DNA of 64,000 nt from a virus. Below, in pieces: positions 16,710-56,447 of the stretch (its first letter is position 1; the number at the start of each line of letters is the position of its first letter). The stretch lies in the IMG/VR virus record IMGVR_UViG_3300045988_142974, positions 32,001-96,000 of that record; one strand, written 5' to 3'. The translations under genes and the position numbers were made by a program. The notes beneath the pieces are model-generated. The model was not told where the DNA came from, made no database searches, and saw nothing but the letters and a program-made list of their open reading frames with translations.

Positions 16710-16725
16710 TTATAATTAAATTAAG

Positions 16726-16797
16726 CATACCTTAAAGGAATTGAACCCCTTACATAACGTTTTGGAGACGTTTGTTCTACCATTAAACTAAAGGTGC
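16726..16797 (-). tRNA. tRNA-Trp (anticodon CCA)
   Basis: Cloverleaf read by eye: acceptor GCACCTT/AAGGTAT (one C-A mismatch), D stem GTTT/GAAC, anticodon stem AACGT/ACGTT with loop CTCCAAA, T loop TTCAATT. No encoded CCA. Confidence 0.7.
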
Positions 16798-16802
16798 ATA
16801 AA

Positions 16803-16831
16803 TAGTAGGAGAGTAGTAGCAACCACTCTCC
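16803..16831 (-). terminator. hairpin/terminator between gene 16863..17654 and tRNA-Trp
   Basis: The minus strand reads GGAGAGTGG-ttgctac-TACTCTCC. The U-tract is weak. Confidence 0.45.
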
Positions 16832-16862
16832 TTAAAAATGAGCATAAAAATAACAGCTATGA

Positions 16863-17654
16863 TTAAGCTGTTTTATCAATCTTCTTAATAAACCTATCTT
16901 TAAGCATTTGTTCAATTTGTTTGTATGTAAAATCCATACTAATCAAACCAGTAACAATAGTTTCTACTTCCTCAACTTTTTTCAATTCATCTTCTGTAAA
17001 ACTATCTCTTAAAGCATCGTTCGTTTTTACATTTCGATCTAATCTAAGTGATTTTGCGTCACATCCCAAAATTACTTTATAAATCATATTAGTATAATTC
17101 GGATAAGCAAATTTCTTATGCTTACTTTCAGGAATATATCTTGAAATAGCAGAAGTCATTCTCTTTCTTTCAATAATTCCAACTTCACGCTGAATAGCCC
17201 ATGATTTTCTATCAATCTCTGTTTTCTCTTCAATATTAAGAAGATAATTTCTAATCTTTGTTGCTAACAAATTACTTGTCATTAGCATACCGATTCTAAG
17301 TAAAGATCTTTTTGTTAAAATAGTAAGACTTGAAGCATATGATAGGCTAGGTTCATTTGAACCTACCCCTAGTTCTTCCTTAAATTTCTTTAATTCTTGC
17401 CCTTTTAAAACAACCATACCATCTTCTTCGAATTCATCACGATTTCTTTTAATTAAGGTTTTGATTGTATCCATACTGCACTCATAATAATTTGCTGCTT
17501 GTTGAACTGTAACAACCATATCATCTGTCAGATATGGAATAACCTTCATTTTGTCAAGAAAGTCATAAGATACATTATCCAATGTTTCATTTCTCAATGT
17601 TTTACTTTCCGTATAAATTAGTTCTTTGTCATTTTGATTTTTCATATTTTTCAT
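16863..17654 (-). CDS. ORF6N (KilA-N/Bro-N-like) domain DNA-binding protein
   Basis: VTVQQAANYYECSMDTIKTLIKRNRDEFEEDGMVVLKGQELKKFKE matches the ORF6N pattern. ATG 17654 lies 8 nt after AGGAGG (the track ORF starts earlier). Confidence 0.65.
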   Translation of the reverse strand: MKNMKNQNDKELIYTESKTLRNETLDNVSYDFLDKMKVIPYLTDDMVVTVQQAANYYECSMDTIKTLIKRNRDEFEEDGMVVLKGQELKKFKEELGVGSNEPSLSYASSLTILTKRSLLRIGMLMTSNLLATKIRNYLLNIEEKTEIDRKSWAIQREVGIIERKRMTSAISRYIPESKHKKFAYPNYTNMIYKVILGCDAKSLRLDRNVKTNDALRDSFTEDELKKVEEVETIVTGLISMDFTYKQIEQMLKDRFIKKIDKTA

Positions 17655-17772
17655 GAAAGAATCCTCCTTTATTTTTTTTGATATAATAAAAAGAAGCCAC
17701 TTCATACGAAATGACTTCTCAAAAAAATTTCAATATTAAATTTCCAATGAAAGTGCAATTTACTTCACTTAG

Positions 17773-17840
17773 CACACCCACTGCGCATCGAACACAGGTT
17801 AGAAGTTTTGGAGACTTCATTCTTGCCAAAAGATAGGTGC
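17773..17840 (-). tRNA. second tRNA-Trp-like gene (anticodon CCA), short D arm
   Basis: Acceptor GCACCTA/TGGGTGT (two G-U pairs), anticodon stem GAAGT/ACTTC with loop CTCCAAA, T arm CTGTG-TTCGATG-CGCAG. Only a 4-nt D loop, 68 nt in total. Confidence 0.55.
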
Positions 17841-17842
17841 AT

Positions 17843-17878
17843 ATAACAAAAGAGTCGTCTCAAACGAAACAACTCTTT
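17843..17878 (-). terminator. intrinsic terminator after 17921..18109
   Basis: The minus strand reads AAGAGTTGT-ttcgtttgag-ACGACTCTT followed by TTGTTAT. Confidence 0.6.
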
Positions 17879-17920
17879 TAATAACAAATATAAAATTAAA
17901 AGTATAAAAAGAAAAATTAA

Positions 17921-18109
17921 TTATCTTTGAAGTTTAACAAGAGCTTCATAAGTTGCCTTATCAACCTCTTGTTCCATACCATCACAGTATACGAGATATT
18001 CTGTAACCTCACCAGTTACAATATCTCTTCTTGTATCAAATGATAATTCATCCGCACTATTAAACGGAATATTTGCTTCATAGACATTTTTAAATGATAA
18101 TAATGCCAT
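17921..18109 (-). CDS. hypothetical small protein
   Basis: 62 aa. GGGGTGA 8 nt before the ATG at 18109, an extended -10-like TGGTATATAAT upstream, and its own terminator. Confidence 0.6.
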   Translation of the reverse strand: MALLSFKNVYEANIPFNSADELSFDTRRDIVTGEVTEYLVYCDGMEQEVDKATYEALVKLQR

Positions 18110-18291
18110 AATATATTCACCCCGCTTTATTATTTGATGAAAATATTATATACCAATATTAACTAAAAGTAAACAAAATATTTTATTGTCTTTCTCATTA
18201 TCTCCTCAAACTCCGAGCTTTCATCTAAGCTGCATAGAACGCATCCTATTATTACAACAGTGCCAGTCCGAAGACCGCAATGGACATAAAA

Positions 18292-18364
18292 TGACCTGTA
18301 TGGAATTTGAACCCCTGTTTACCGCCGTGAAATGGCGGTGTCCTTGCCTTTAGACCACAGAGCC
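18292..18364 (-). tRNA. tRNA-Glu-like (anticodon TTC), degenerate acceptor and T stems
   Basis: GGTCTAAAGGCAAGGACACCGCCATTTCACGGCGG closely follows bacterial tRNA-Glu (anticodon loop ATTTCAC). However, the acceptor GGCTCTG/ACAGGTC has three mismatches and the T stem AGGGG/TCCAT has one. Confidence 0.45.
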
Positions 18365-18397
18365 ATATTTAGGGTGGAAGAGTACCACCCATTATTT

Positions 18398-18871
18398 TCA
18401 CAGAGTATATTCTGTAGTTCCTTCAAAAGTATTATTCAATGCACGAATTTCAGCTAACTTCTCAGTAACAGCTTCCTTAACTTTCGTAGCAAATAATACA
18501 CACTGAGCCTGTGCATACAGTTCCTTCTTATCAAGAACAGTATTTAATACTGTATCAGGATATTTTGTTACATCTCTTTCAAAATGAAATGCCAAATCTT
18601 CATTGATAAGTTTTCTCTCATTTGTTACATCCGTAATCTCCAATTCAACAATAGTAGAATCGTCTTTTGGATCTGTTGTTACTTCTGGAACACCATTATT
18701 AAGCTTGATATTTCCCTTGAACTGAATTTTACTATACTCGATATATTTATTATAGTTTGCTAATAATTCCTTTTCCTGCTCGCTAGTTAAATCCGCAGTT
18801 CCCAAACTTGTAACTGCAATATCTACACTTGCAATATCATTTTCTACTTTAAACACCTGATCTAATTTCAT
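18398..18871 (-). CDS. hypothetical protein
   Basis: 157 aa. The ATG overlaps the upstream gene's stop. No motif recognised. Confidence 0.65.
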   Translation of the reverse strand: MKLDQVFKVENDIASVDIAVTSLGTADLTSEQEKELLANYNKYIEYSKIQFKGNIKLNNGVPEVTTDPKDDSTIVELEITDVTNERKLINEDLAFHFERDVTKYPDTVLNTVLDKKELYAQAQCVLFATKVKEAVTEKLAEIRALNNTFEGTTEYTL

Positions 18872-19161
18872 GAATTTGTACCCTCACTTTCGTTTGCAAT
18901 TATTTGGTTGTATGCATCTTTAAAACTGATTACTAAGTCCCTTAAAGTCTCTTTATCAATAGTACAGTCCAAATTACTCATATCAATATTCGGATTTGAT
19001 ACCGTAAATTCCAATGTATTTCCATTTGGCGCAAATAAAACTTCCACAGATTCATTAAGCAGAAGAGTAATAGAATCAATTTTATTTCCATTATTCGATG
19101 TTACTCGTTTTACTTGCCCGACTTTTAATCTATCATTTTCAATAGATAATCTACTTGCCAT
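18868..19161 (-). CDS. hypothetical protein
   Basis: ATG 19161 (MASRLSIEN...) lies 10 nt after AGGAG. The track ORF starts earlier, at 19206. Confidence 0.6.
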   Translation of the reverse strand: MASRLSIENDRLKVGQVKRVTSNNGNKIDSITLLLNESVEVLFAPNGNTLEFTVSNPNIDMSNLDCTIDKETLRDLVISFKDAYNQIIANESEGTNS

Positions 19162-19208
19162 TATATGTACACTCCTTTCTTTTATTTTCGTTTTCCTTTT
19201 AATCATTA

Positions 19209-19282
19209 GGTGTTAGGTGGGATTTGAACCCACGATATTCAGAACCACAATCTGACGCTTTAACCTACTAAGCTACTAACAC
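19209..19282 (-). tRNA. tRNA-His (anticodon GTG)
   Basis: Perfect acceptor GTGTTAG/CTAACAC, anticodon stem TCAGA/TCTGA with loop TTGTGGT, T arm GTGGG-TTCAAAT-CCCAC. Position -1 is T, not the usual encoded G. Confidence 0.8.
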
Positions 19283-19284
19283 AG

Positions 19285-19355
19285 CGACTCTATTGGGAAT
19301 CGAACCAAATCTTCCGATAGACAGTCGGATGTAATTACCTTTATACCATAGAGCC
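19285..19355 (-). tRNA. tRNA-Asp (anticodon GTC)
   Basis: Acceptor GGCTCTA/TAGAGTC (one G-U pair), anticodon stem TCCGA/TCGGA with loop CTGTCTA, T loop TTCGATT. Confidence 0.75.
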
Positions 19356-19359
19356 ATAG

Positions 19360-19431
19360 CTGACTCGGTGGGGCTTGAACCCACAACGCCTCGATTAACA
19401 ATCGAGTGCTCTACCATTGAGCTACGAGTCA
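19360..19431 (-). tRNA. tRNA-Asn (anticodon GTT)
   Basis: Perfect acceptor TGACTCG/CGAGTCA, D stem GCTC/GAGC, anticodon stem CTCGA/TCGAG with loop TTGTTAA, T arm GTGGG-TTCAAGC-CCCAC. Confidence 0.85.
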
Positions 19432-24446: not shown

Positions 24447-25682
24447 TTAACTAAGCTGAATATCCTTTATCATTTCAACTTCGTTATCTTTTAAAATTGC
24501 TATTGTTTGAGATGCTACACTGCTACAATAAAAATTTTTCGAATAATCATTATAACCACTAAGGCAACCCGTAGAAATAGCATATCTACCATGATTTTCT
24601 GATTCAATTGAAAAGTTGTGGAGATGTCCACTAAAGATTAAATCATAGAATTTATTATCACTAGATATAATTTTTGAAAGATTATGTTTTCCATTTTTAT
24701 ACCTATCACCATGAATAAATTTACAAGATAAACCACAAACAGTAATATTTATTTCAGAATCATTATAGTTTGTATTTAATATAGAAATGCGTTCACAACC
24801 ACTTACATCAACTAAATCTTTAATATGTTCAGTAATAAGTACATTTGCATTGTCACCTTCATAACTCTTTTTCTTGTCTCCAGACATACGATCATGATTT
24901 CCAGCAATTCCACCAAATATAACATTACAATCTTCAGCTAAAGCAACTAATAGTCTATATATCAATTTAGTAGCCTTATGTATTTGCATAGATTGTAAAA
25001 ATTCACAATTATGTGCTTGTGTTTCTCTCATATATGAATTCTCAATCATATCACCTGTTGATATAATTAGAACCTGACGGATATTATATAATTCAATATA
25101 CTTCTTACATTCAGAAATATATTTGTTTATTCTTTCATTTGCAATTTCCCAATTAAAATTATTACCATTACAATTGTTGATTATATAACCAATATGCCAA
25201 TCGGTAATATGACATATCATAGTATAATCAGATTCTTCTTCAACAGAAAAGTACATATATTTAGGAATTTCCATTGAGAAATTATTATCTTTCATATACT
25301 GCTTCAATTCATCTGCAACTGTAATACAAGGAACTAAATCTCTTTTTAACTTATTGAGCTTCAATCTATCATTATGTATTTGCTGTTTAACAATATATTG
25401 TTCACCTAATACTTCTTTAGCATCATCAAGAGTAGTACTTTTTTCTGTTATGTTTTTAGCTTTTAAATATTCTCTAACAAAATAATTGCCAAATATGGTC
25501 TGACTAGCCTTTCTGACGCTATCATAATGACATTTTATATCATATTTATCTACAATTTCTTTCCAATCTATATCTGAAATACCAGACATTTTATTAGAAA
25601 TTTCTTGTAAAACCTGTTCATAAGTTGATGGGGTTAGCCCATATTTTTTTAATTCTTCTTCGAAATTATAAATATAGTTCAC
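24447..25682 (-). CDS. calcineurin-like metallophosphoesterase (SbcD/Mre11-like or phosphatase) with extra N-terminal domain
   Basis: Motifs in order: HITDWHIG, TGDMIEN, AGNHD, SGHLHN. 411 aa, GTG start. Confidence 0.75.
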   Translation of the reverse strand: MNYIYNFEEELKKYGLTPSTYEQVLQEISNKMSGISDIDWKEIVDKYDIKCHYDSVRKASQTIFGNYFVREYLKAKNITEKSTTLDDAKEVLGEQYIVKQQIHNDRLKLNKLKRDLVPCITVADELKQYMKDNNFSMEIPKYMYFSVEEESDYTMICHITDWHIGYIINNCNGNNFNWEIANERINKYISECKKYIELYNIRQVLIISTGDMIENSYMRETQAHNCEFLQSMQIHKATKLIYRLLVALAEDCNVIFGGIAGNHDRMSGDKKKSYEGDNANVLITEHIKDLVDVSGCERISILNTNYNDSEINITVCGLSCKFIHGDRYKNGKHNLSKIISSDNKFYDLIFSGHLHNFSIESENHGRYAISTGCLSGYNDYSKNFYCSSVASQTIAILKDNEVEMIKDIQLS

Positions 25683-25689
25683 CTACTCT

Positions 25690-25890
25690 CTATTCTTCAT
25701 TAGATTCAGTAGGCTCATCGAGTTCACTTTCCTCTTTTACCTTCACATTTATTTCAACACTTCCACCGTTAAATACTGATAGAAGAGTAGCAAGTTTCTT
25801 TTCTTCGCCATCTACTTCAACAGTCATATTATCTGTATCAATAATACCTGCAGAAGTCTGCTTAATTTCCTTAAAAACAAAATTTGCCAT
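25690..25890 (-). CDS. hypothetical small acidic protein
   Basis: 66 aa, ATG with an upstream SD, tightly packed within the operon. Confidence 0.55.
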   Translation of the reverse strand: MANFVFKEIKQTSAGIIDTDNMTVEVDGEEKKLATLLSVFNGGSVEINVKVKEESELDEPTESNEE

Positions 25891-25913
25891 AATCCTTTAA
25901 ATCCTCCATAAAA

Positions 25914-26225
25914 TTAAAAATTCCCACCAGAACGCTTTCTGCCAGGATTAAAATACATTTGCTTACTTTTATTCTGTTTTACACCAATATACTCACGAAT
26001 CTTTCTGATATAATCTTCATCATAACTTAAACGAATATGTGACTCCAAATAATAACATCCACAATGAGTAGGAATTTTATTTGATAATACATTGTCAATA
26101 AGTTTGTATGATGGATTAAGATTCGAGAGATGAGTATGCTTTTCTGTATCTTCTTTTCTACAGATACGATAGCCATTTTCGGTCTTGTCAATATAAAATC
26201 CTTTATACTCAATTCTATTTTTCAT
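25914..26225 (-). CDS. hypothetical protein
   Basis: 103-aa ORF in the operon. No motif. Confidence 0.55.
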   Translation of the reverse strand: MKNRIEYKGFYIDKTENGYRICRKEDTEKHTHLSNLNPSYKLIDNVLSNKIPTHCGCYYLESHIRLSYDEDYIRKIREYIGVKQNKSKQMYFNPGRKRSGGNF

Positions 26226-26234
26226 AGACAGAAC

Positions 26235-26399
26235 CTACTTGACATATTTATCTTCAATGTAACGCTTTCCACCACAAGTTTTATAATATCCAATATGTTC
26301 ACCATTCCGATCTACATATCCTCGTCTTGTGTTTCTAATTACACCTTCAGATAATAATTTTTCAATTTCATTTTTTGAAATGTACTTAATAATTTTCAC
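26235..26399 (-). CDS. hypothetical small protein (54 aa, below the track cutoff)
   Basis: GTG at 26399 (VKIIKYISKNEIEKLLSEGVIRNTRRGYVDRNGEHIGYYKTCGGKRYIEDKYVK) with A/G-rich sequence upstream. Confidence 0.4.
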   Translation of the reverse strand: MKIIKYISKNEIEKLLSEGVIRNTRRGYVDRNGEHIGYYKTCGGKRYIEDKYVK

Positions 26400-26438
26400 T
26401 TCTTTCTTGATTTATTTCCTGCATAAGCAGGATAGTAG

Positions 26439-26513
26439 TTGGAAATGTAGGATTTGAACCCACGACCTCCTGAACCCAAATCAGGCGTTCTAACCAAACT
26501 GAACTAATTCCCA
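26439..26513 (-). tRNA. tRNA-Pro (anticodon TGG)
   Basis: Acceptor TGGGAAT/ATTTCCA (one G-U pair), D stem GTTC/GAAC, anticodon stem CCTGA/TCAGG with loop TTTGGGT (G37), T arm GTGGG-TTCAAAT-CCTAC. Confidence 0.8.
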
Positions 26514-26515
26514 AA

Positions 26516-27410
26516 ATAAAAAATCCCATACCGAAGTATGAGATTCTTACCTAATATGAGCTGAGATATTTGACTCAATACACTAACATCTACTGTGGTT
26601 GGACACAGTTTATCACACAAGCGATTAACTTGTAGTTAGCAACAACACCGATTTTGACATAATCGGCAAACTCTTACCACAAAGTATTATAGATTTTCTT
26701 TCTGCACATTCTTCCTTGCGAGATTCATAGGTTGCAGCCTATTAGAATTGTACGTACTTGTACTTTCTCATATAGTACCTTGCGAGTGCTATATGTCACC
26801 ATATTACAGATGAATAAGTTGTTTGCCTCTTTGCGGTCATACACACTTTTGCTTGTTCTTTAATCAGTTTACCTTTTAATATAAATATGCATTATATTTG
26901 ATTTATTCTTTCAAGAGTATGTTGTAATTAATATTTGCATAAAAATGAACGATGAGGTGTACATTTGATCATCTGTACCTTTTGAGTACAGCCCAATCAT
27001 CACCATTCTGTTCGTCTTGCTATTGACTTACTTCGTTATTCTGTTCCTTGCTTTCGCATTAAGAAACGTTGCAACAATCAATATTAGCACTTTTTCTTGC
27101 GGAAATCGCACCAATAAGACAGTAATCATACCCATGTTTCCATGTTAATACAGCGCATTTCTCATTACGCCTACCAAATCAACTTATCTAAGAATTATCA
27201 AGCTTATCAGAGCTATCAAATCTACAAAGATTCATAAATAGTCATTAGCAGTTGCCCTCTGACCTTAGACTTGGTATAGATTATCTGTGTTTTCCGTCAA
27301 ACTGCCATACGCAGTCGCAGTGTCTTATGCAAACTAAAGACATTCCTGCTTTATCCTTATTGCTAAGTTTATTTAACGACACGAAACCTGCCGCCTACAA
27401 GTAGGAGAGT
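26516..27410 (-). ncRNA. candidate very large structured RNA (about 900 nt, ORF-free) flanked by two tRNA genes (GOLLD/ROOL-class candidate)
   Basis: No ORF of 60 aa or more in any of the six frames over about 900 nt. GC is visibly higher than in neighbouring genes. Hairpins are dense (CATAC-cgaa-GTATG, CCGATT..AATCGG, ATAGG..CCTAT, GTACA..TGTAC, TGCG..CGCA). It lies in the same orientation block as the flanking tRNA-Pro and tRNA-Met-like genes. Confidence 0.4.
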
Positions 27411-27482
27411 TGCAGAAACAGGACTCGAACCTGCATACTCTTGGTTATGAGCCAAGTGAGCTTCCATTGCTCGTCATTCCGC
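27411..27482 (-). tRNA. tRNA-Met/Ile2-like (anticodon CAT), irregular acceptor/D junction
   Basis: D stem GAGC/GCTC, anticodon stem CTTGG/CCAAG with loop CTCATAA, T arm GCAGG-TTCGAGT-CCTGT. The acceptor GCGGAA/TTCTGC pairs only 6 bp, with an extra nucleotide before the D stem. Confidence 0.5.
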
Positions 27483-27678
27483 TATAATATTTAAGAATTA
27501 TCAGTGACCATACTACAAAAACTGTAGTACAGTCACCGATTATAGAAGGTAAGGTACAATGAATATGTACTTGATGTTTACATTTTATTATTCTCTGTTT
27601 TATTAGTCAAGAAAAGCTGATTTCATTGTTTTCCATATGTGATATATAACACCATAAAAACAGCTGTAAATCCTTATT

Positions 27679-28554
27679 TTACAAGGAAAACTCCGATTTT
27701 CTATTTGTGGTTATACGCTTTTTATTATATTTTTTATATCTTTTCAAGTCATTTTGTTTTCTACAATCATCGCAGTATAATCGTTTATTAGCTGTTTTTT
27801 CAATAATTCCACCACATCGTTTACAACGAGAATATTTATTATTGTGTCCACGCTTAACAGAGTAATAGTCTTTTTGGTAGTTTTGAAAATACGCATTTAA
27901 CGATCTATTGATGTACTTAACATAAAAATTATCTTCAGTAATAAAATCATAGTTATTTACAATCTGAGTCTTATCTTCATATTCTCCAATCAGTTTGCAA
28001 TTATCAAAACATTTTCTCAAAAATCCTTCAACAACCTTTTTATATTCATTCCAAGATAATATCATTTTCTCCTTTTGAAAACGTTGTTTGAGTTTTTCGG
28101 CTTCATCAATTACATCGTCAATAATACCAGTGGTTGTATTTGCATCCATCTCAGTTCCAGATAACCAATTGAAGTACATTAGCTTTGGTTTCTTTAATAA
28201 ATCCATGTACTCCTTATTGAGAATTACTTCTTTATCAAAATATCTTGTATAAATATTATTGATTTTCTGTCTGATAATAGCGCACCAATTTTCATCTTTA
28301 GTCATTGACTTGTAATATCTGTATTCAATTCCTGACCATGTATCAAATATTCGTCCAAGTTCTGTATCAAGTAAATCCTTTCTGACTTTAAAATGAATTG
28401 TTTTAATATATGTACGCCTTTTATTATCAGAAGCCCATATTGAGGAGCAGAACGAGTTGAATATCTCGTCCTTTACCTTATTATTCTCTGCTTCTTTGTA
28501 ATCTTCTATAATTTCATATAGAAATGTTTCATTACAGTCGTAAATATGTATCAC
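27679..28554 (-). CDS. hypothetical protein with C-terminal zinc ribbon, coupled to the RNA polymerase gene
   Basis: 291 aa. The GTG start overlaps the 3' end of 28532..31165 by 23 nt. CKRCGG...CDDC followed by a basic tail. Confidence 0.6.
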   Translation of the reverse strand: MIHIYDCNETFLYEIIEDYKEAENNKVKDEIFNSFCSSIWASDNKRRTYIKTIHFKVRKDLLDTELGRIFDTWSGIEYRYYKSMTKDENWCAIIRQKINNIYTRYFDKEVILNKEYMDLLKKPKLMYFNWLSGTEMDANTTTGIIDDVIDEAEKLKQRFQKEKMILSWNEYKKVVEGFLRKCFDNCKLIGEYEDKTQIVNNYDFITEDNFYVKYINRSLNAYFQNYQKDYYSVKRGHNNKYSRCKRCGGIIEKTANKRLYCDDCRKQNDLKRYKKYNKKRITTNRKSEFSL

Positions 28555-31165
28555 CTACCTCAAATTCATAGTATTTTCCAAGATATTCATATGAATTGTC
28601 CGTCTTATAAGGAACTTCTCTTATTGATATATTTCTTTTTGGATTCGTGTTATTCTTGAGATTTTCAATGATATAATCGCCATAAGCTGACCATGCAAGA
28701 GATTTGCTAATAGAAACAGAAGAGTAAGAAGCTTTAATAACATAGTTTGCTATAATATTTTCAGGCAATTCAATCTCATTTATGAGTTTCGTTTTATACT
28801 CATTTACGACTTCATCCATATTGAATTTATGGTCTTCATCATCCGACTTATCTCTATGTAGATTCAGATGCTGCTTAATATCAACCGCATACATATTTAT
28901 AAACTTCCTGCATTTCTTTAAGACTTTTCTATCAAACAAATCCAAATCATTATCAATAATTAAACATCTAGTATCAACCAAATCAATTTTATTATCCCAT
29001 AAGATATTTTTCTTTTCCCAAGTTTCAATATAATCACACAACTCATTCATAGGAGAAGGAGAGTGATATGCATTAAGATATTCTTTGTCCTCGTCAGAAG
29101 TATCTCTATTCTTTTTGATTATATTCATATAGGATTTCATTTTTTTAGGATAGTTATGAAGTAAGAAATATGGAAGCTGTTTAAGATGCTTTCTAAGACC
29201 TGAATTCATATGCCATCTGAATCCCGTTTTAAGGAAGTCAATTTCTTTGCCCTGAAAAATTCTTAGAAGAGAAGAGTAATCAGAATATAATTTTTGAATA
29301 TCTGGATTGGTCGTATATTTATTCTCTATACTTGTGGCAACATTAGTAATTTCACCAATACGATTATCTCTTGTCATTACTTCATACTCAATAAGATTCT
29401 CTTTTGTATATGGTTTTGATTGAGCGGTTACTTTGTCTTCAATATCAAGTATGATATGCTTATCTACCTTTGAATCAATAATGATAGGATCGTTGCTTAA
29501 ATAGAAAATATCACCATCAAAATCTGCGCCGCCTTGCTGTGGAGCTGATACATCATACATATTAAACATTACTACATCTTGGTCTTTAAAATAATCAAAC
29601 CATTTTGTAAGAATGTCATTTCGTACAATCTTAATCTTATTTACCTCTGATGGATCAACAAGCGGAGAACGGAATGAACAACAATATCCTGGTTCAAAAT
29701 TTGCTGTATATAATTCTCTTTCTCCAAGACAACCAACTGGTTCTTCACCAACGGCATACTGAAGATAACCAATCATATCACCAACACCTGTATGATAAAA
29801 CCCTGAACAATAAATTTTACCAACTTTTGCTTCATCAATAGACTTTTTGAGTTTTCTATAAATGAATTGCTTAACAGCAGGATCTTTTAACATAACATCA
29901 TTTACCAATGCAGCTTCAAGATATTTACTTTCTGGCTCATAATCTTCTGTATCAGTAATTCCCATGAATTTATATGTATAAAATTTATCACCTTTAATGA
30001 TTTTTTCATACATATTAGTGGTATATTTTGCAAGCTTAATGATTTTTCCATCATTCTTAGAATCTAATATGTCATAGTCCTTTTTTGTTTTATCTGTATA
30101 ACATTTGACATATTTATCATTCCAAAGATCCAGACATTGTAAATACTGAAAATTCATTCGTGTATATTTATTTAAATGCTTAATATGATGACTATATTTA
30201 CTGATACCAAGTTTGAATTCATACTTCCTAACAGTATTCATATATTCAATCCATGCGTTTTCACCATAAGTTGATTTAAAAATCTTATGCCCTTTAAACA
30301 TCGAAATATTCCAAATGCAATCTACATCATCAATATTATGAACATGCCCATAAATGTCAGTAATAGTGGTGTAACCCCATTCTTTAAGAATTTGTTTAAA
30401 TGGTACATATACAGAATATCCTTTAATAAATGGTAAACGTACCTGTGTTCCAATAACTTTGTAGTCTAATCCAAGTTGCTCACTCACAGTATTCATAAAG
30501 TTTTCTTCATGACAGCCACATCCGTCAAAAGGTGATAATCCAATATCTTTTAATCCTTCTTCAATTTCTCTGGTTTTATATTTCTTTTTCTTACCAGTAT
30601 TTTCATCAACAAATTCTTTTTCTCTTTCAACTACGTATTTAATAAGCTGATTTTTCAACGTTTTTTCATATTCACCTATAATTACAATATTAGGCATATA
30701 ATCTTTGATAAGAGTACATGAACTGAATGGTAAACATCTCTGAGCTTCGTACTTGGAAATAACACATTCATCAATTTTAATATCCATTTGAGTAATCAAA
30801 TATAACTCATCAAAAATTTCATCACATACAAATGCAGTAATTCCATCTTTACCTTGTGAAGCTGATTTGCCAAAACGAGAATAGTGAATTCCATTATATG
30901 TAAATCCATCATTTAGAATCTTTCTAAGTGATTCCTCTTGCTTTGGATTCTTCTTTGCAACAACCAACATAAGTTCACTTATATGAGATGATGATTCACC
31001 ACGAAGTCTCTGAATCTGATCAAATAAAGGAGAATCACCTTGCTTGATAAGATATTCTTTTTTGATTTCTGTATCTCTATTAATCTGAATATTAAAATCT
31101 CCATCAATAAGTTCTCTTATTGGGATTTTTACTAATGTATACTGTACCTTTTTTATAATTATCAC
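28532..31165 (-). CDS. YonO/RdRP-like single-subunit double-psi beta-barrel RNA polymerase
   Basis: VSAPQQGGADFDGDIFYLSNDP carries the universal DxDGD metal-binding motif. It is preceded by CCSFRSPLVDPSEV, the counterpart of the RNPxxHPGD strand of eukaryotic-type RdRPs. 877 aa, similar in size to SPbeta YonO. Confidence 0.75.
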   Translation of the reverse strand: MIIIKKVQYTLVKIPIRELIDGDFNIQINRDTEIKKEYLIKQGDSPLFDQIQRLRGESSSHISELMLVVAKKNPKQEESLRKILNDGFTYNGIHYSRFGKSASQGKDGITAFVCDEIFDELYLITQMDIKIDECVISKYEAQRCLPFSSCTLIKDYMPNIVIIGEYEKTLKNQLIKYVVEREKEFVDENTGKKKKYKTREIEEGLKDIGLSPFDGCGCHEENFMNTVSEQLGLDYKVIGTQVRLPFIKGYSVYVPFKQILKEWGYTTITDIYGHVHNIDDVDCIWNISMFKGHKIFKSTYGENAWIEYMNTVRKYEFKLGISKYSHHIKHLNKYTRMNFQYLQCLDLWNDKYVKCYTDKTKKDYDILDSKNDGKIIKLAKYTTNMYEKIIKGDKFYTYKFMGITDTEDYEPESKYLEAALVNDVMLKDPAVKQFIYRKLKKSIDEAKVGKIYCSGFYHTGVGDMIGYLQYAVGEEPVGCLGERELYTANFEPGYCCSFRSPLVDPSEVNKIKIVRNDILTKWFDYFKDQDVVMFNMYDVSAPQQGGADFDGDIFYLSNDPIIIDSKVDKHIILDIEDKVTAQSKPYTKENLIEYEVMTRDNRIGEITNVATSIENKYTTNPDIQKLYSDYSSLLRIFQGKEIDFLKTGFRWHMNSGLRKHLKQLPYFLLHNYPKKMKSYMNIIKKNRDTSDEDKEYLNAYHSPSPMNELCDYIETWEKKNILWDNKIDLVDTRCLIIDNDLDLFDRKVLKKCRKFINMYAVDIKQHLNLHRDKSDDEDHKFNMDEVVNEYKTKLINEIELPENIIANYVIKASYSSVSISKSLAWSAYGDYIIENLKNNTNPKRNISIREVPYKTDNSYEYLGKYYEFEVGDTYLRL

Positions 31166-38304: not shown

Positions 38305-39423
38305 TTATATTATAGAAGCGTTGTATTTTTCTACAATCGTTCTAAGTTTTGTAACAAAATGAGAGATGTCAACAAAATAATTTGGATATGCTAATCTTAA
38401 TGTTTCAAATGATGAGGCAGATACAAGTACAACATTTTTGTCAGAATTTTGTTCAATCTGATCGTAAGCTTTTGTAGCATATTCAAGATTTTTAAATGGT
38501 CTAACTTGTACGGTCTTTTTGTTATAATCAAGCAACAATATATAATATAAATTCTTATTTTTCTGATTGAATTTTTTACTTGCATAATCAATAGATACAT
38601 TTAATCCGCTTAATGTAGATATTATGTTATTTTTATTATCAAGATAATTAATTTCTTTGATTAATTCATCCATCCAATCAGAAGTATTAGGGCATACTGG
38701 CATTTTTTCTTCAATAGCAAATATAGATGATACCAATTCAAAAAATCTAAGGATATCATAATCACCTTGACTAGATTTAAGATTACTGTTTGTATATATA
38801 CCCATCATTTCTACAGCAGTTGCCCACATATGTTGCAATTTTGTGCGGAATTGGACTTCTATAAACATATTTTTATTATAAGTATCTTTTTTGTCACTAT
38901 AGAATTGATATACCATATGATAAGATCTATATCCTGATTGTTTTGGGTTAGCAATATAATCATATTCACGTTTAAGTATATGCCTTATTCGAGAGTTTTT
39001 ATACTTGTCAACCGCTTCATATACTTGCTCTATAGTATCTACGATTACACGACAACCACCTAAATCTTGCATTTTATATAATTGCATTTCGGGAAATCTT
39101 TGAATCTTGCCGGTTATAGATTCTAAACGTTTTAATCTTTGAACAACTATAGCATTAGGATTCTTCTTTCTAAGGTTGCTACATATAATTTGTAAAGGAT
39201 ATGCGTGTGCAGCTCTCCAATTGTTTAATATGACTAGTGCTTTTTTACGTTCTTCAGACGTTGAAAATGGATCAGCTATTATTTTTCCTGCTTTATTAAT
39301 CTGATTGCCTGAATATTTAGGTACTTCCCATTTTTCTTTATTGTTACTTAACATAAATTCCTCCTCAATACTTTTGATAATGGTATCTAAGTCAAGTATA
39401 TCACTTTTTACAATAGTTTTCAT
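38305..39423 (-). CDS. RelA/SpoT-domain protein, toxSAS class with C-terminal extension (CapRel-like fused toxin-antitoxin candidate)
   Basis: Motifs in order: NNWRAAHAYPLQ, RLKRLESITGKIQR, MQDLGGCRVIV, PKQSGYRSYHMVY, IEVQFRTKLQHMWATAVE. These are followed by a non-catalytic tail of about 150 aa. Confidence 0.8.
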   Translation of the reverse strand: MKTIVKSDILDLDTIIKSIEEEFMLSNNKEKWEVPKYSGNQINKAGKIIADPFSTSEERKKALVILNNWRAAHAYPLQIICSNLRKKNPNAIVVQRLKRLESITGKIQRFPEMQLYKMQDLGGCRVIVDTIEQVYEAVDKYKNSRIRHILKREYDYIANPKQSGYRSYHMVYQFYSDKKDTYNKNMFIEVQFRTKLQHMWATAVEMMGIYTNSNLKSSQGDYDILRFFELVSSIFAIEEKMPVCPNTSDWMDELIKEINYLDNKNNIISTLSGLNVSIDYASKKFNQKNKNLYYILLLDYNKKTVQVRPFKNLEYATKAYDQIEQNSDKNVVLVSASSFETLRLAYPNYFVDISHFVTKLRTIVEKYNASII

Positions 39424-41978: not shown

Positions 41979-41990
41979 TTGCAGAGTGGA

Positions 41991-42012
41991 GGCAGGCTTT
42001 GAGCCTGCCTTT
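41991..42012 (+). terminator. intrinsic terminator
   Basis: GGCAGGC-tttga-GCCTGCC followed by TTT. Confidence 0.65.
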
Positions 42013-42100
42013 AATGCACTATTTCAGTGTATGAAATAGCGGTCACAAGTCCGCAATTTAATTGTCGGTGGAGATAGTATCAAGAGCCGTGGAGGAAACT

Positions 42101-55710: not shown

Positions 55711-55899
55711 ATGTATAAGCTGCGAATATATAAGTTGTCTGGTGTAGATAAAGGAAACTTAGATCATGAGGAATTGTTCGATACTAAAAATCAGATGGAC
55801 AAAAGATATGATGAATTGTTTCAAAGAGATTTGTATGGCTTAAATCCGACTGCATGGGAACAGATTGACAATGAATGGAAACGATTGGAGGGATATTAA
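55711..55899 (+). CDS. hypothetical small protein
   Basis: ATG 8 nt after GGGAGAG. Confidence 0.55.
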   Translation: MYKLRIYKLSGVDKGNLDHEELFDTKNQMDKRYDELFQRDLYGLNPTAWEQIDNEWKRLEGY

Positions 55900-55900
55900 A

Positions 55901-56122
55901 ATGAGAGTAAAAACATATCAAAATAAACGAAACAAGCGGAAATATATCGAAGTTCATAATGACGGACATTATCATAATTCTGTTCGTCAGTATATAGAAC
56001 ATGACCAGAAAGTTGCTGGTCGTAAGGTTGGAGTTGTTAGAAATTACACTGGCGATGGAAAACTTCATCGGTGGAGAAAAGGCAACTTGAATGAGTTATT
56101 GGAAGATTACAAAGAGGTATAG
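55901..56122 (+). CDS. hypothetical small basic protein
   Basis: ATG 8 nt after TTGGAGGG and 1 nt after the upstream stop. Confidence 0.55.
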   Translation: MRVKTYQNKRNKRKYIEVHNDGHYHNSVRQYIEHDQKVAGRKVGVVRNYTGDGKLHRWRKGNLNELLEDYKEV

Positions 56123-56159
56123 AATTTTAGGAATTGCAGAAGAGATTGGAGTGATGGAA

Positions 56160-56447
56160 ATGAAAATAAAGTGTCCTAATTGCGGAAAAGAATTTGATTT
56201 GTATAGATTAAAACATGATGAAAATAACCTCGAAGGATTTTATACATATCATTCTAAATGTCGAGCTAGTTTTGACATTGATTTTGATATGAACAAGACA
56301 TTTATAACAGATATTCCTAAAATGGCAGATTTTAAAATCCTTACAAAAGAAGCATTTTTGGAAAGTTACAGTTATTTAACAGAGGACGAATATAATGCAA
56401 CCGCATTATATATGAACTGGTTAAACGCAGATGACGAAGAACCTTAG
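56160..56447 (+). CDS. hypothetical protein with CPNCG motif
   Basis: ATG 8 nt after TTGGAG. MKIKCPNCGKEFDLY... Confidence 0.6.
   Translation: MKIKCPNCGKEFDLYRLKHDENNLEGFYTYHSKCRASFDIDFDMNKTFITDIPKMADFKILTKEAFLESYSYLTEDEYNATALYMNWLNADDEEP

Follow-up and report, generated by a model that had tools for sequence, protein, structure and literature searches.

We identify the segment 27408..26522 (-) of a viral genome as the gene for a full-length GOLLD RNA of ~890 nt that belongs to a divergent lineage found in tailed phages (~80-220 kb) of gut Clostridia, and place the probability of this reading at about 0.85. The segment lies in a 64,000-nt stretch (hereafter the window) that covers positions 32,001-96,000 of the IMG/VR virus record IMGVR_UViG_3300045988_142974, and whose terminase, portal, Amidase_3 endolysin, integrase and ParB-like genes are those of a tailed phage. 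GOLLD RNA (RF02032) reportedly goes back to Weinberg et al. 2009. It is a phage RNA found near tRNA islands and forms cages (PMC12286853, PMC12990946). The element described here is a new divergent member of that known family and not a new kind of RNA, with a two-domain GOLLD layout consisting of a ~400-nt 5' domain, a variable linker, a 3' domain and a terminator. Assignment to the family is based on a covariance-model match, compensatory changes across homologues, a 5' junction signature and conserved inter-subunit contact loops.

An earlier note, made from the sequence alone, had picked out this segment as a structured stretch lacking ORFs (open reading frames) and as a candidate for the GOLLD or ROOL class of large RNAs. 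Same-strand tRNA-Pro and tRNA-Met genes do flank it, each found by both ARAGORN and Rfam, and no ORF of at least 60 aa lies between them (the longest has 50 aa, 27252..27404, +; the others have at most 47 aa). The minus-strand hairpin with a UUCG loop is also as described, its 13-bp stem being followed by a U-run at 26548..26519(-). The word CCTTGCGAG, noted as repeated, has exactly two copies in the window (26714 and 26778, + strand) where 0.09 are expected by chance, although the first had been placed one position off; read on the minus strand, the two copies are two invariant CGCAA loops, L20 and L21b. That the segment is richer in GC than its surroundings is only weakly true, with a GC content of 0.31-0.41 against 0.25-0.31 nearby and an AT-rich middle formed by the linker. 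Structure exceeds chance expectation, as the abundance of hairpins had suggested, with a minimum free energy z-score of -3.09 on the minus strand and strong covariation in homologues. The plus-strand z-score is -0.53, so that folding stability is strand-specific.

When the region 26350-27650 was scanned alone with permissive settings, RF02032 matched at 27008..26558 (-) over model positions 1-416 of 416, with 83 bits and an E-value of 1.2e-21. Relatives from the same clade score 94.6-100.9 bits against this model, all of them over its full length. An Rfam scan of the window at gathering thresholds returned only tRNAs and a twister-P5 ribozyme, with GOLLD absent, and a permissive Rfam scan of all 64 kb reported no large RNA. 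Because 83 bits fall below the gathering score, a routine Rfam scan reports nothing, and because the match appears once the 1.3-kb segment is scanned alone, the whole-window negatives are artefacts of filtering and thresholds. The Rfam model spans only the conserved 3' half of GOLLD, and the 400 nt upstream of the match (27408..27009) are therefore positionally equal to the variable 5' domain.

The same scans separate the two families that the earlier note had offered together. ROOL is likewise large, ornate and associated with phages, lies near tRNAs, assembles into RNA-only cages and occupies a similar genomic niche (PMC12286853), but its sequence and fold are unrelated to those of the window RNA. 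No ROOL match was found at E<=10 in 26350-27650 on either strand or in the whole-window scans, and all other large-RNA families, among them OLE, group I/II introns, HEARO and transfer-messenger RNA (tmRNA), were likewise without a match at E<=10 on both strands of 26350-27650. We reject ROOL on this absence of a match, and the probability that the RNA is ROOL or another of these known large RNAs is negligible. The GOLLD half of the proposal is borne out by the covariance-model match and by covariation, two tests that the note had named.

Covariation was assessed in an alignment, A1, of the window sequence and 32 non-redundant homologues (33 sequences) from related ~80-220-kb phage contigs; 43 related IMG/VR loci contain the segment, with 73-93% identity. 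The Rfam consensus structure, which comprises helices P14-P27 and was not built from these sequences, was projected onto A1 through the window row. Across its 92 pairs, 93.2% of cells are paired, compared with 32-46% with slid partners, and 34 pairs are changed on both sides, compared with 2-5 in the slid controls; none of 500 shuffles reached the observed pairing values. At least 83% pairing is seen in 12 of the 14 projected helices, and compensatory changes in 13 of the 14. For the 5' domain, RNAalifold gave a structure of 13 helices and 76 pairs. It is 97.8% paired, and 42 of its pairs are doubly changed, where slid controls show 4-9; these controls are the comparison that matters, since A1 also served to derive the structure. 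In the Rfam projection the P21b hairpin was out of register, with 70% pairing, and a shift brought it to 100%. With this hairpin corrected and the terminator stem added, the full model contains 177 pairs in 29 helices, of which 96.3% of cells are paired and 81 pairs are doubly changed, compared with 6-15 in slid controls. Its re-registered 3-bp L21b-type stem (helix 23) is 100% paired with two pairs changed on both sides, and the terminator stem (helix 29) is 99.4% paired across homologues with five such pairs. Both GOLLD domains are maintained by compensatory evolution.

A decayed coding sequence stranded between two tRNA genes would fit the lack of a long ORF, the variability of the region and the existence of a relative (locus L046) whose copy is internally deleted. 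What has been preserved, however, is base pairs and not codons, as the 81 pairs changed on both sides attest; conservation is higher in loops than in stems, the stability z-score is specific to one strand, and the segment matches a non-coding RNA family. The covariation results exclude a pseudogene, whose probability we regard as close to nil, and establish a structured RNA read from the minus strand. Across the clade, 84% of hairpin-loop positions in the 3' domain are invariant, compared with 47% of paired positions and 17% of the linker, a pattern expected of specific loop contacts combined with freely covarying stems.

For the 5' domain, which lies outside the Rfam model, the comparison is with env-38 GOLLD, a 14-mer solved by cryo-electron microscopy (PDB 9MEE; Kretsch et al. 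2025, PMC12286853). The env-38 RNA starts with AAAUAA-(GNRA hairpin)-GAUAAAGUGG-(hairpin)-CUGCG-(hairpin)-UUGAG, and the window RNA has the order AAAUAA-(GCAA hairpin)-GAUAAAGCAG-(hairpin)-CUGCG-(hairpin)-UUGAC, the common signature, from the P2-P5 region, being AAAUAA / AUAAAGYRG / CUGCG. In env-38, adenosines of the signature junction make ribose-zipper and A-minor contacts (PMC12286853). Written as the pattern AAATAA N8-20 ATAAAGYRG N10-40 CTGCG, the signature was found in 0 of 100 shuffles of the window and gave more than 119 matches in IMG/VR, where our rough estimate is that a collection of this size would hold on the order of a hundred by chance. Since many matches are probably due to chance, 20 non-clade matches, sampled solely by short locus length, were scanned with Rfam at gathering thresholds. 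In eight of the 20, a canonical GOLLD 3' domain scoring 243-322 bits starts ~320-380 nt 3' of the signature, on the same strand; the corresponding spacing in the window is 308 nt. Exact-word hallmarks (GCAAAAGT and then TCTCAG) downstream of the signature were positive in 4 of 80 matches, a test that env-38 itself fails and that is therefore too strict; it was replaced by the Rfam scan, on a sample picked regardless of these words. The eight loci with a canonical 3' domain argue that the signature is a genuine mark of the GOLLD 5' domain and that the window RNA is a full-length GOLLD. The 5' domain is itself variable within the clade, a homologous insertion of 51-59 nt being present in 11 of the 33 sequences, including the window, and missing from the rest.

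The resemblance to env-38 extends over the whole RNA. Both are phage-encoded, 800-900 nt long and located in a tRNA island downstream of tRNA-Met, both are built from a 5' domain, an AU-rich linker and a conserved 3' domain, and all Rfam 3'-domain helices are present in the window. The env-38 sequence that could be recovered comprises 816 of 833 nt (17 nt lost), and its residues were accordingly placed by local context and not by global alignment. Both RNAs have the L14 loop CAAAA, the J13/15 GC together with the L20 loop CGCAA, and GC loops at both L21a and L21b. In env-38 the J13/15 GC pairs with L20 of the neighbouring subunit to form bridge B7 (PMC12286853); where env-38 has A547:U617 in this contact, C:G is present both in the window and in the Rfam consensus. 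The inter-subunit bridge nucleotides in L14, J13/15, L20, L21a and L21b are present and invariant or nearly so in the 33 sequences; all but one of the five L14 positions never vary, and conservation at the remaining one is at least 90%. The sequence of the B10 donor loop is different. The linker, measured from helix to helix, is 109 nt long in the window (26946..26838, including the conserved J13/15 segment at its 3' end), compared with ~42 disordered nt in env-38, and varies across the clade from 80 to 111 nt at 75-82% A+T. Coordinates of these elements are collected in the table.

Table. Features of the GOLLD locus in the window, in the direction of transcription.
Feature	Coordinates	Strand	Basis or remark
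Candidate sigma-70-type promoter TTGACT-17-TAAAAT for the tRNA-Met/GOLLD unit	27582..27610	-	Consensus scan, 10/12 matches
Long near-perfect leader hairpin, upstream of tRNA-Met	27500..27537	-	Read from the sequence; no U-run after it
tRNA-Met(CAU/cat)	27409-27483	-	ARAGORN; Rfam tRNA 45.2 bits; directly 5' of the RNA; CCA not encoded
GOLLD 5' domain (RNA positions 1-400)	27009..27408	-	13 helices, RNAalifold
Junction signature AAAUAA-(GNRA hairpin)-AUAAAGCAG-(hairpin)-CUGCG	27316..27374	-	Common to env-38
Optional 51-59-nt insertion	27181..27239	-	A1 columns 262-320
GOLLD 3' domain (RNA positions 401-851)	26558..27008	-	Whole RF02032 model
L14 loop CAAAA	26980..26984	-	Mapped via the Rfam consensus; env-38 counterpart donates inter-subunit A-minor bridge B6
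Linker, variable AU-rich part	26857..26946	-	Counterpart disordered and facing the cage interior in env-38
J13/15 segment AAGCAAAAGU	26845..26854	-	Invariant in A1; mapped to env-38 G546/A547
L20 loop CGCAA	26780..26784	-	Invariant; J13/15 partner; one CCTTGCGAG word
L21a-type loop CUGCAA	26732..26737	-	Self-complementary GC; symmetric kissing contact B8 in env-38
L21b-type loop CGCAA	26716..26720	-	Invariant; symmetric kissing bridge B9 in env-38; other CCTTGCGAG word
Terminal L27-type hairpin, conserved UCUCAGC	26559..26575	-	Fits the Rfam consensus GguGUAa..UCUCAgcCU; loop almost invariant
Intrinsic terminator, predicted 3' end	26519..26548	-	Terminator scan: 13-bp stem, UUCG loop, U-run
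tRNA-Pro(UGG/tgg)	26438-26513	-	ARAGORN; Rfam tRNA 65.6 bits; directly 3' of the terminator

Two further groups of GOLLD RNAs help to place the window copy. The GOLLD of Streptococcus agalactiae, which is 700 nt long and forms a dodecamer (PDB 9L0R; PMC12990946), belongs to the same family, has a Bacillota host as well, and follows the same contact logic of L14 with P21, J13/15 (the review's L15) with L20, and L21 with L21. Subunit number follows peripheral elements, the S. agalactiae RNA without P9, P11a-c and P21b being a 12-mer and env-38 a 14-mer (PMC12990946), and we therefore predict none for the window RNA. Nor is the S. agalactiae stoichiometry transferable, because the window RNA is the longer of the two by ~190 nt and retains a P21b-type hairpin. 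GOLLDs of mycobacteria and mycobacteriophages such as PegLeg are, like the window copy, set in tRNA arrays and unannotated in deposited records. In some mycobacterial copies the J13/15 linker harbours a tRNA (Morgado et al. 2020, as cited in PMC12990946), whereas the window linker holds no tRNA (ARAGORN) and no embedded ORF, and the window tRNAs flank the RNA on either side. In Mycobacterium phage PegLeg (NC_021299.1, 54800-57300) the published GOLLD interval 55846-56259 is without an RNA feature in RefSeq; it sits in a tRNA-gene island that also includes an HNH endonuclease and a tmRNA. Deposited phage genomes leave known GOLLDs unannotated.

Several observations weigh against the identification as GOLLD and are best considered together. 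The score of 83 bits is below the Rfam gathering score of 150, which is an annotation cut-off and no biological feature, and canonical viral GOLLD 3' domains reach 243-322 bits compared with 83-101 in this clade. Sequence-only nhmmer profiles of the two domains, run against env-38 and 400 shuffles, found nothing, not even with the 3' domain, which the covariance model does connect to the family; we take this result as uninformative and not as a negative. The window RNA also departs from known GOLLD in places: L24 is UAAUC and not A-rich, L26 is shortened to 6 nt (UCCAAC) from ~11, the hairpin after the long-range helix is truncated, UAAUA replaces the consensus GAGUA, and part of the clade has the optional 5' insertion. 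Because the contact loops are invariant, the intermolecular pairs are beyond the reach of covariation within the clade. The candidate promoter is a consensus match, and promoter-like sites are not enriched in the region (10 found, 7.7 expected). Finally, the RNA is present at 43 of the 74 related loci that cover the site and absent from the other 31.

Some of these points could be taken to indicate that the RNA forms a new class of its own among ornate phage RNAs, not homologous to GOLLD but resembling it in a few GNRA-like loops and in its place within a tRNA island. Every tested clade member falls below the gathering threshold (83-101 bits), the whole-window scans, including the permissive one, have no match, and the sequence-only profile misses env-38. 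An alignment over all 416 model positions with an E-value of 1e-21 is hard to reconcile with such a class, as are the pairing of at least 83% in 12 of 14 helices that were taken from Rfam and the compensatory changes in 13 of them. The 5' signature is moreover common to env-38 and to contigs with canonical GOLLD, at similar spacing. A separate class is largely refuted, and we consider it highly improbable.

Identification as GOLLD leads to a proposed route by which the RNA would be made, drawn mainly from signals in the sequence. The RNA is probably transcribed from the minus strand together with tRNA-Met, either from the promoter-like site at 27610..27582 or by read-through from upstream. The conserved RNA begins at the base directly after tRNA-Met, and its 5' end may be released by maturation of this CCA-less tRNA, through RNase Z-type cleavage after the discriminator, with the 3' end predicted to be set by the terminator. 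By homology with the env-38 14-mer and the S. agalactiae 12-mer, RNA copies would then contact one another through their L14, J13/15-L20, L21a and L21b loops, all of them invariant, and would assemble into a closed RNA-only cage that is hollow, has dihedral symmetry and encloses the AU-rich linkers (PMC12286853, PMC12990946). The leader hairpin upstream of tRNA-Met could serve in processing or could terminate transcription of the gene before it. Sequence around the promoter-like site (27632..27578) is 88-89% conserved, even in relatives without the RNA, and the leader region (27560..27507) is 91% conserved in GOLLD-less relatives.

Such conservation of the leader hairpin and promoter-like site where GOLLD is missing, together with the same-strand tRNAs that always flank the RNA, would also suit a structured spacer or processing scaffold of the phage tRNA operon, acting in cis on tRNA maturation or stability and with no function as a free RNA or assembly. 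Yet the RNA is kept while the identities of the flanking tRNAs change, some relatives have a tRNA alone at the site, and the RNA has its own terminator before the downstream tRNA. A length of ~890 nt with 29 covarying helices and invariant loops exceeds the needs of any spacer, and homologues assemble as free RNA (PMC12286853). We reject this explanation and give it very little weight.

Preferring a GOLLD gene, we turn to how it is distributed. Near and distant searches of GenBank phages returned tRNA matches only and no close relative. In IMG/VR, 79 related loci were found, on contigs mostly of 80-220 kb, and in all 43 of the homologous loci with the RNA it lies between same-strand tRNAs. The upstream tRNA in relatives is Asn(GTT) at 37 loci and Met at 3; downstream, Pro is found at 33 loci, Thr at 5, Lys at 2, Phe at 1 and another at 2. 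The GOLLD-less loci include some where a tRNA directly follows the upstream gene and some with unrelated DNA. Identity of the RNA to the window copy does not track that of the flanking genes (r about 0; loci L001-L079 compared with 24447..28554) and is lower, at 81-86% against 89-95% for the flanks. In locus L001 the flanks are 99% identical to the window and the GOLLD 3' domain is 85% identical. Divergence of the 5' and 3' domains is only loosely coupled (r = 0.28). Absence from 31 of 74 relatives makes the RNA dispensable, and with the varying tRNA neighbours and the weak coupling to flanks and between domains it is a dispensable, mosaic cassette in a tRNA island.

Individual loci illustrate other states of the site. 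Three GOLLD-less loci (L052, L045 and L077) have ~1.2 kb of unrelated DNA between the promoter-like region and the leader hairpin (~3912-5091 in L052). Locus L046 (4804..5274) is internally deleted and retains only ~79 nt of the 5' domain together with the final ~380 nt of the query region, made up of the 3' third of the RNA and tRNA-Pro, and in locus L047 (4278..4540) the first ~250 nt have been swapped for unrelated DNA. The latter two represent decay or rearrangement of the cassette.

A genome scan with an exact pattern of the clade core motif, using one representative genome per species, found copies in three genomes: Eubacterium segne BX4 (an isolate, on a 340-kb contig) and metagenome-assembled genomes (MAGs) of Lachnospira and Ruminococcus. 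The order at the E. segne locus is tRNA-Met, GOLLD, tRNA and phage-type genes, and its PHROG-284 exonuclease is 29% identical to that of the window. These copies make gut Clostridia the most likely hosts, in contrast to the marine bacteria or Lactobacillales of known GOLLD, and lend indirect support to the Bacillota prophage context that the earlier note had assumed. In the Ruminococcus sp. MAG, the 1.8-kb contig (1..1825) carries on one strand a skipping-rope RNA (RF02924, 57.5 bits), a tRNA, the clade GOLLD (98.4 bits), a tRNA and the 5' end of a 23S rRNA, and is either a GOLLD beside an rRNA operon or a chimeric assembly. The portion of the published GOLLD alignment examined contains no Eubacterium, Lachnospira or Ruminococcus entries, which is weak evidence that the clade was previously unreported.

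GOLLD cages are among the largest natural RNA-only assemblies, and the lineage described here, in phages of human-gut-type Clostridia, is missed entirely by standard Rfam annotation; the Rfam GOLLD seed and threshold could be widened with these sequences. Our best guess, a speculative one, is that the RNA is a dispensable late-infection accessory tied to the tRNA and translation economy of the phage. We speculate further that it may scaffold or enclose tRNAs or ribosome-related cargo. Natural experiments are at hand in near-isogenic phages with and without the RNA, two 5'-domain architectures and reassorted domains, and in a related copy in the cultured isolate E. segne BX4. Such variants could test the role of the cage and how peripheral helices set subunit number.

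Given the altered L24 and L26, the ~100-nt linker and a 5' cap domain in which a ~55-nt arm may be present or absent, the cage subunit number could differ from those known. Taken jointly, the observations might even describe a structurally distinct GOLLD subtype of gut Clostridia whose cages have a different and possibly switchable subunit number, encoded by a tRNA-GOLLD-tRNA cassette that is matured by tRNA-processing enzymes and exchanged among phages as a module, although we consider this combined proposal unlikely. If a distinct subtype and module exchange with reassortment of 5' and 3' domains were true, diversifying selection as in phage-host conflict loci would be implied, for example where phage tRNAs are protected or stored against host anticodon nucleases.

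Other features of the window are recorded here as separate observations. A second tRNA cluster (Trp x2, Glu, His, Asp and Asn) lies ~7 kb downstream on the same strand, at 16725..19431 (-). An 877-aa protein (28532..31165, -), encoded two genes upstream of the RNA, carries a PF05183 'RdRP' domain (E 3.7e-11) and also matches phrog_8308; we take it to have a QDE-1/YonO-type single-subunit RNA polymerase fold. The ORF at 38305..39423 (-) has a RelA_SpoT nucleotidyltransferase domain (E 8.5e-21) and could encode an alarmone-synthetase or toxSAS-like enzyme. Some enzymes of these types modify tRNA. The type-P5 twister ribozyme (RF02684) is located at 41980..42054 (+), just 5' of a plus-strand ORF that starts at 42062, and scores 49.3 bits against a gathering score of 37.6.

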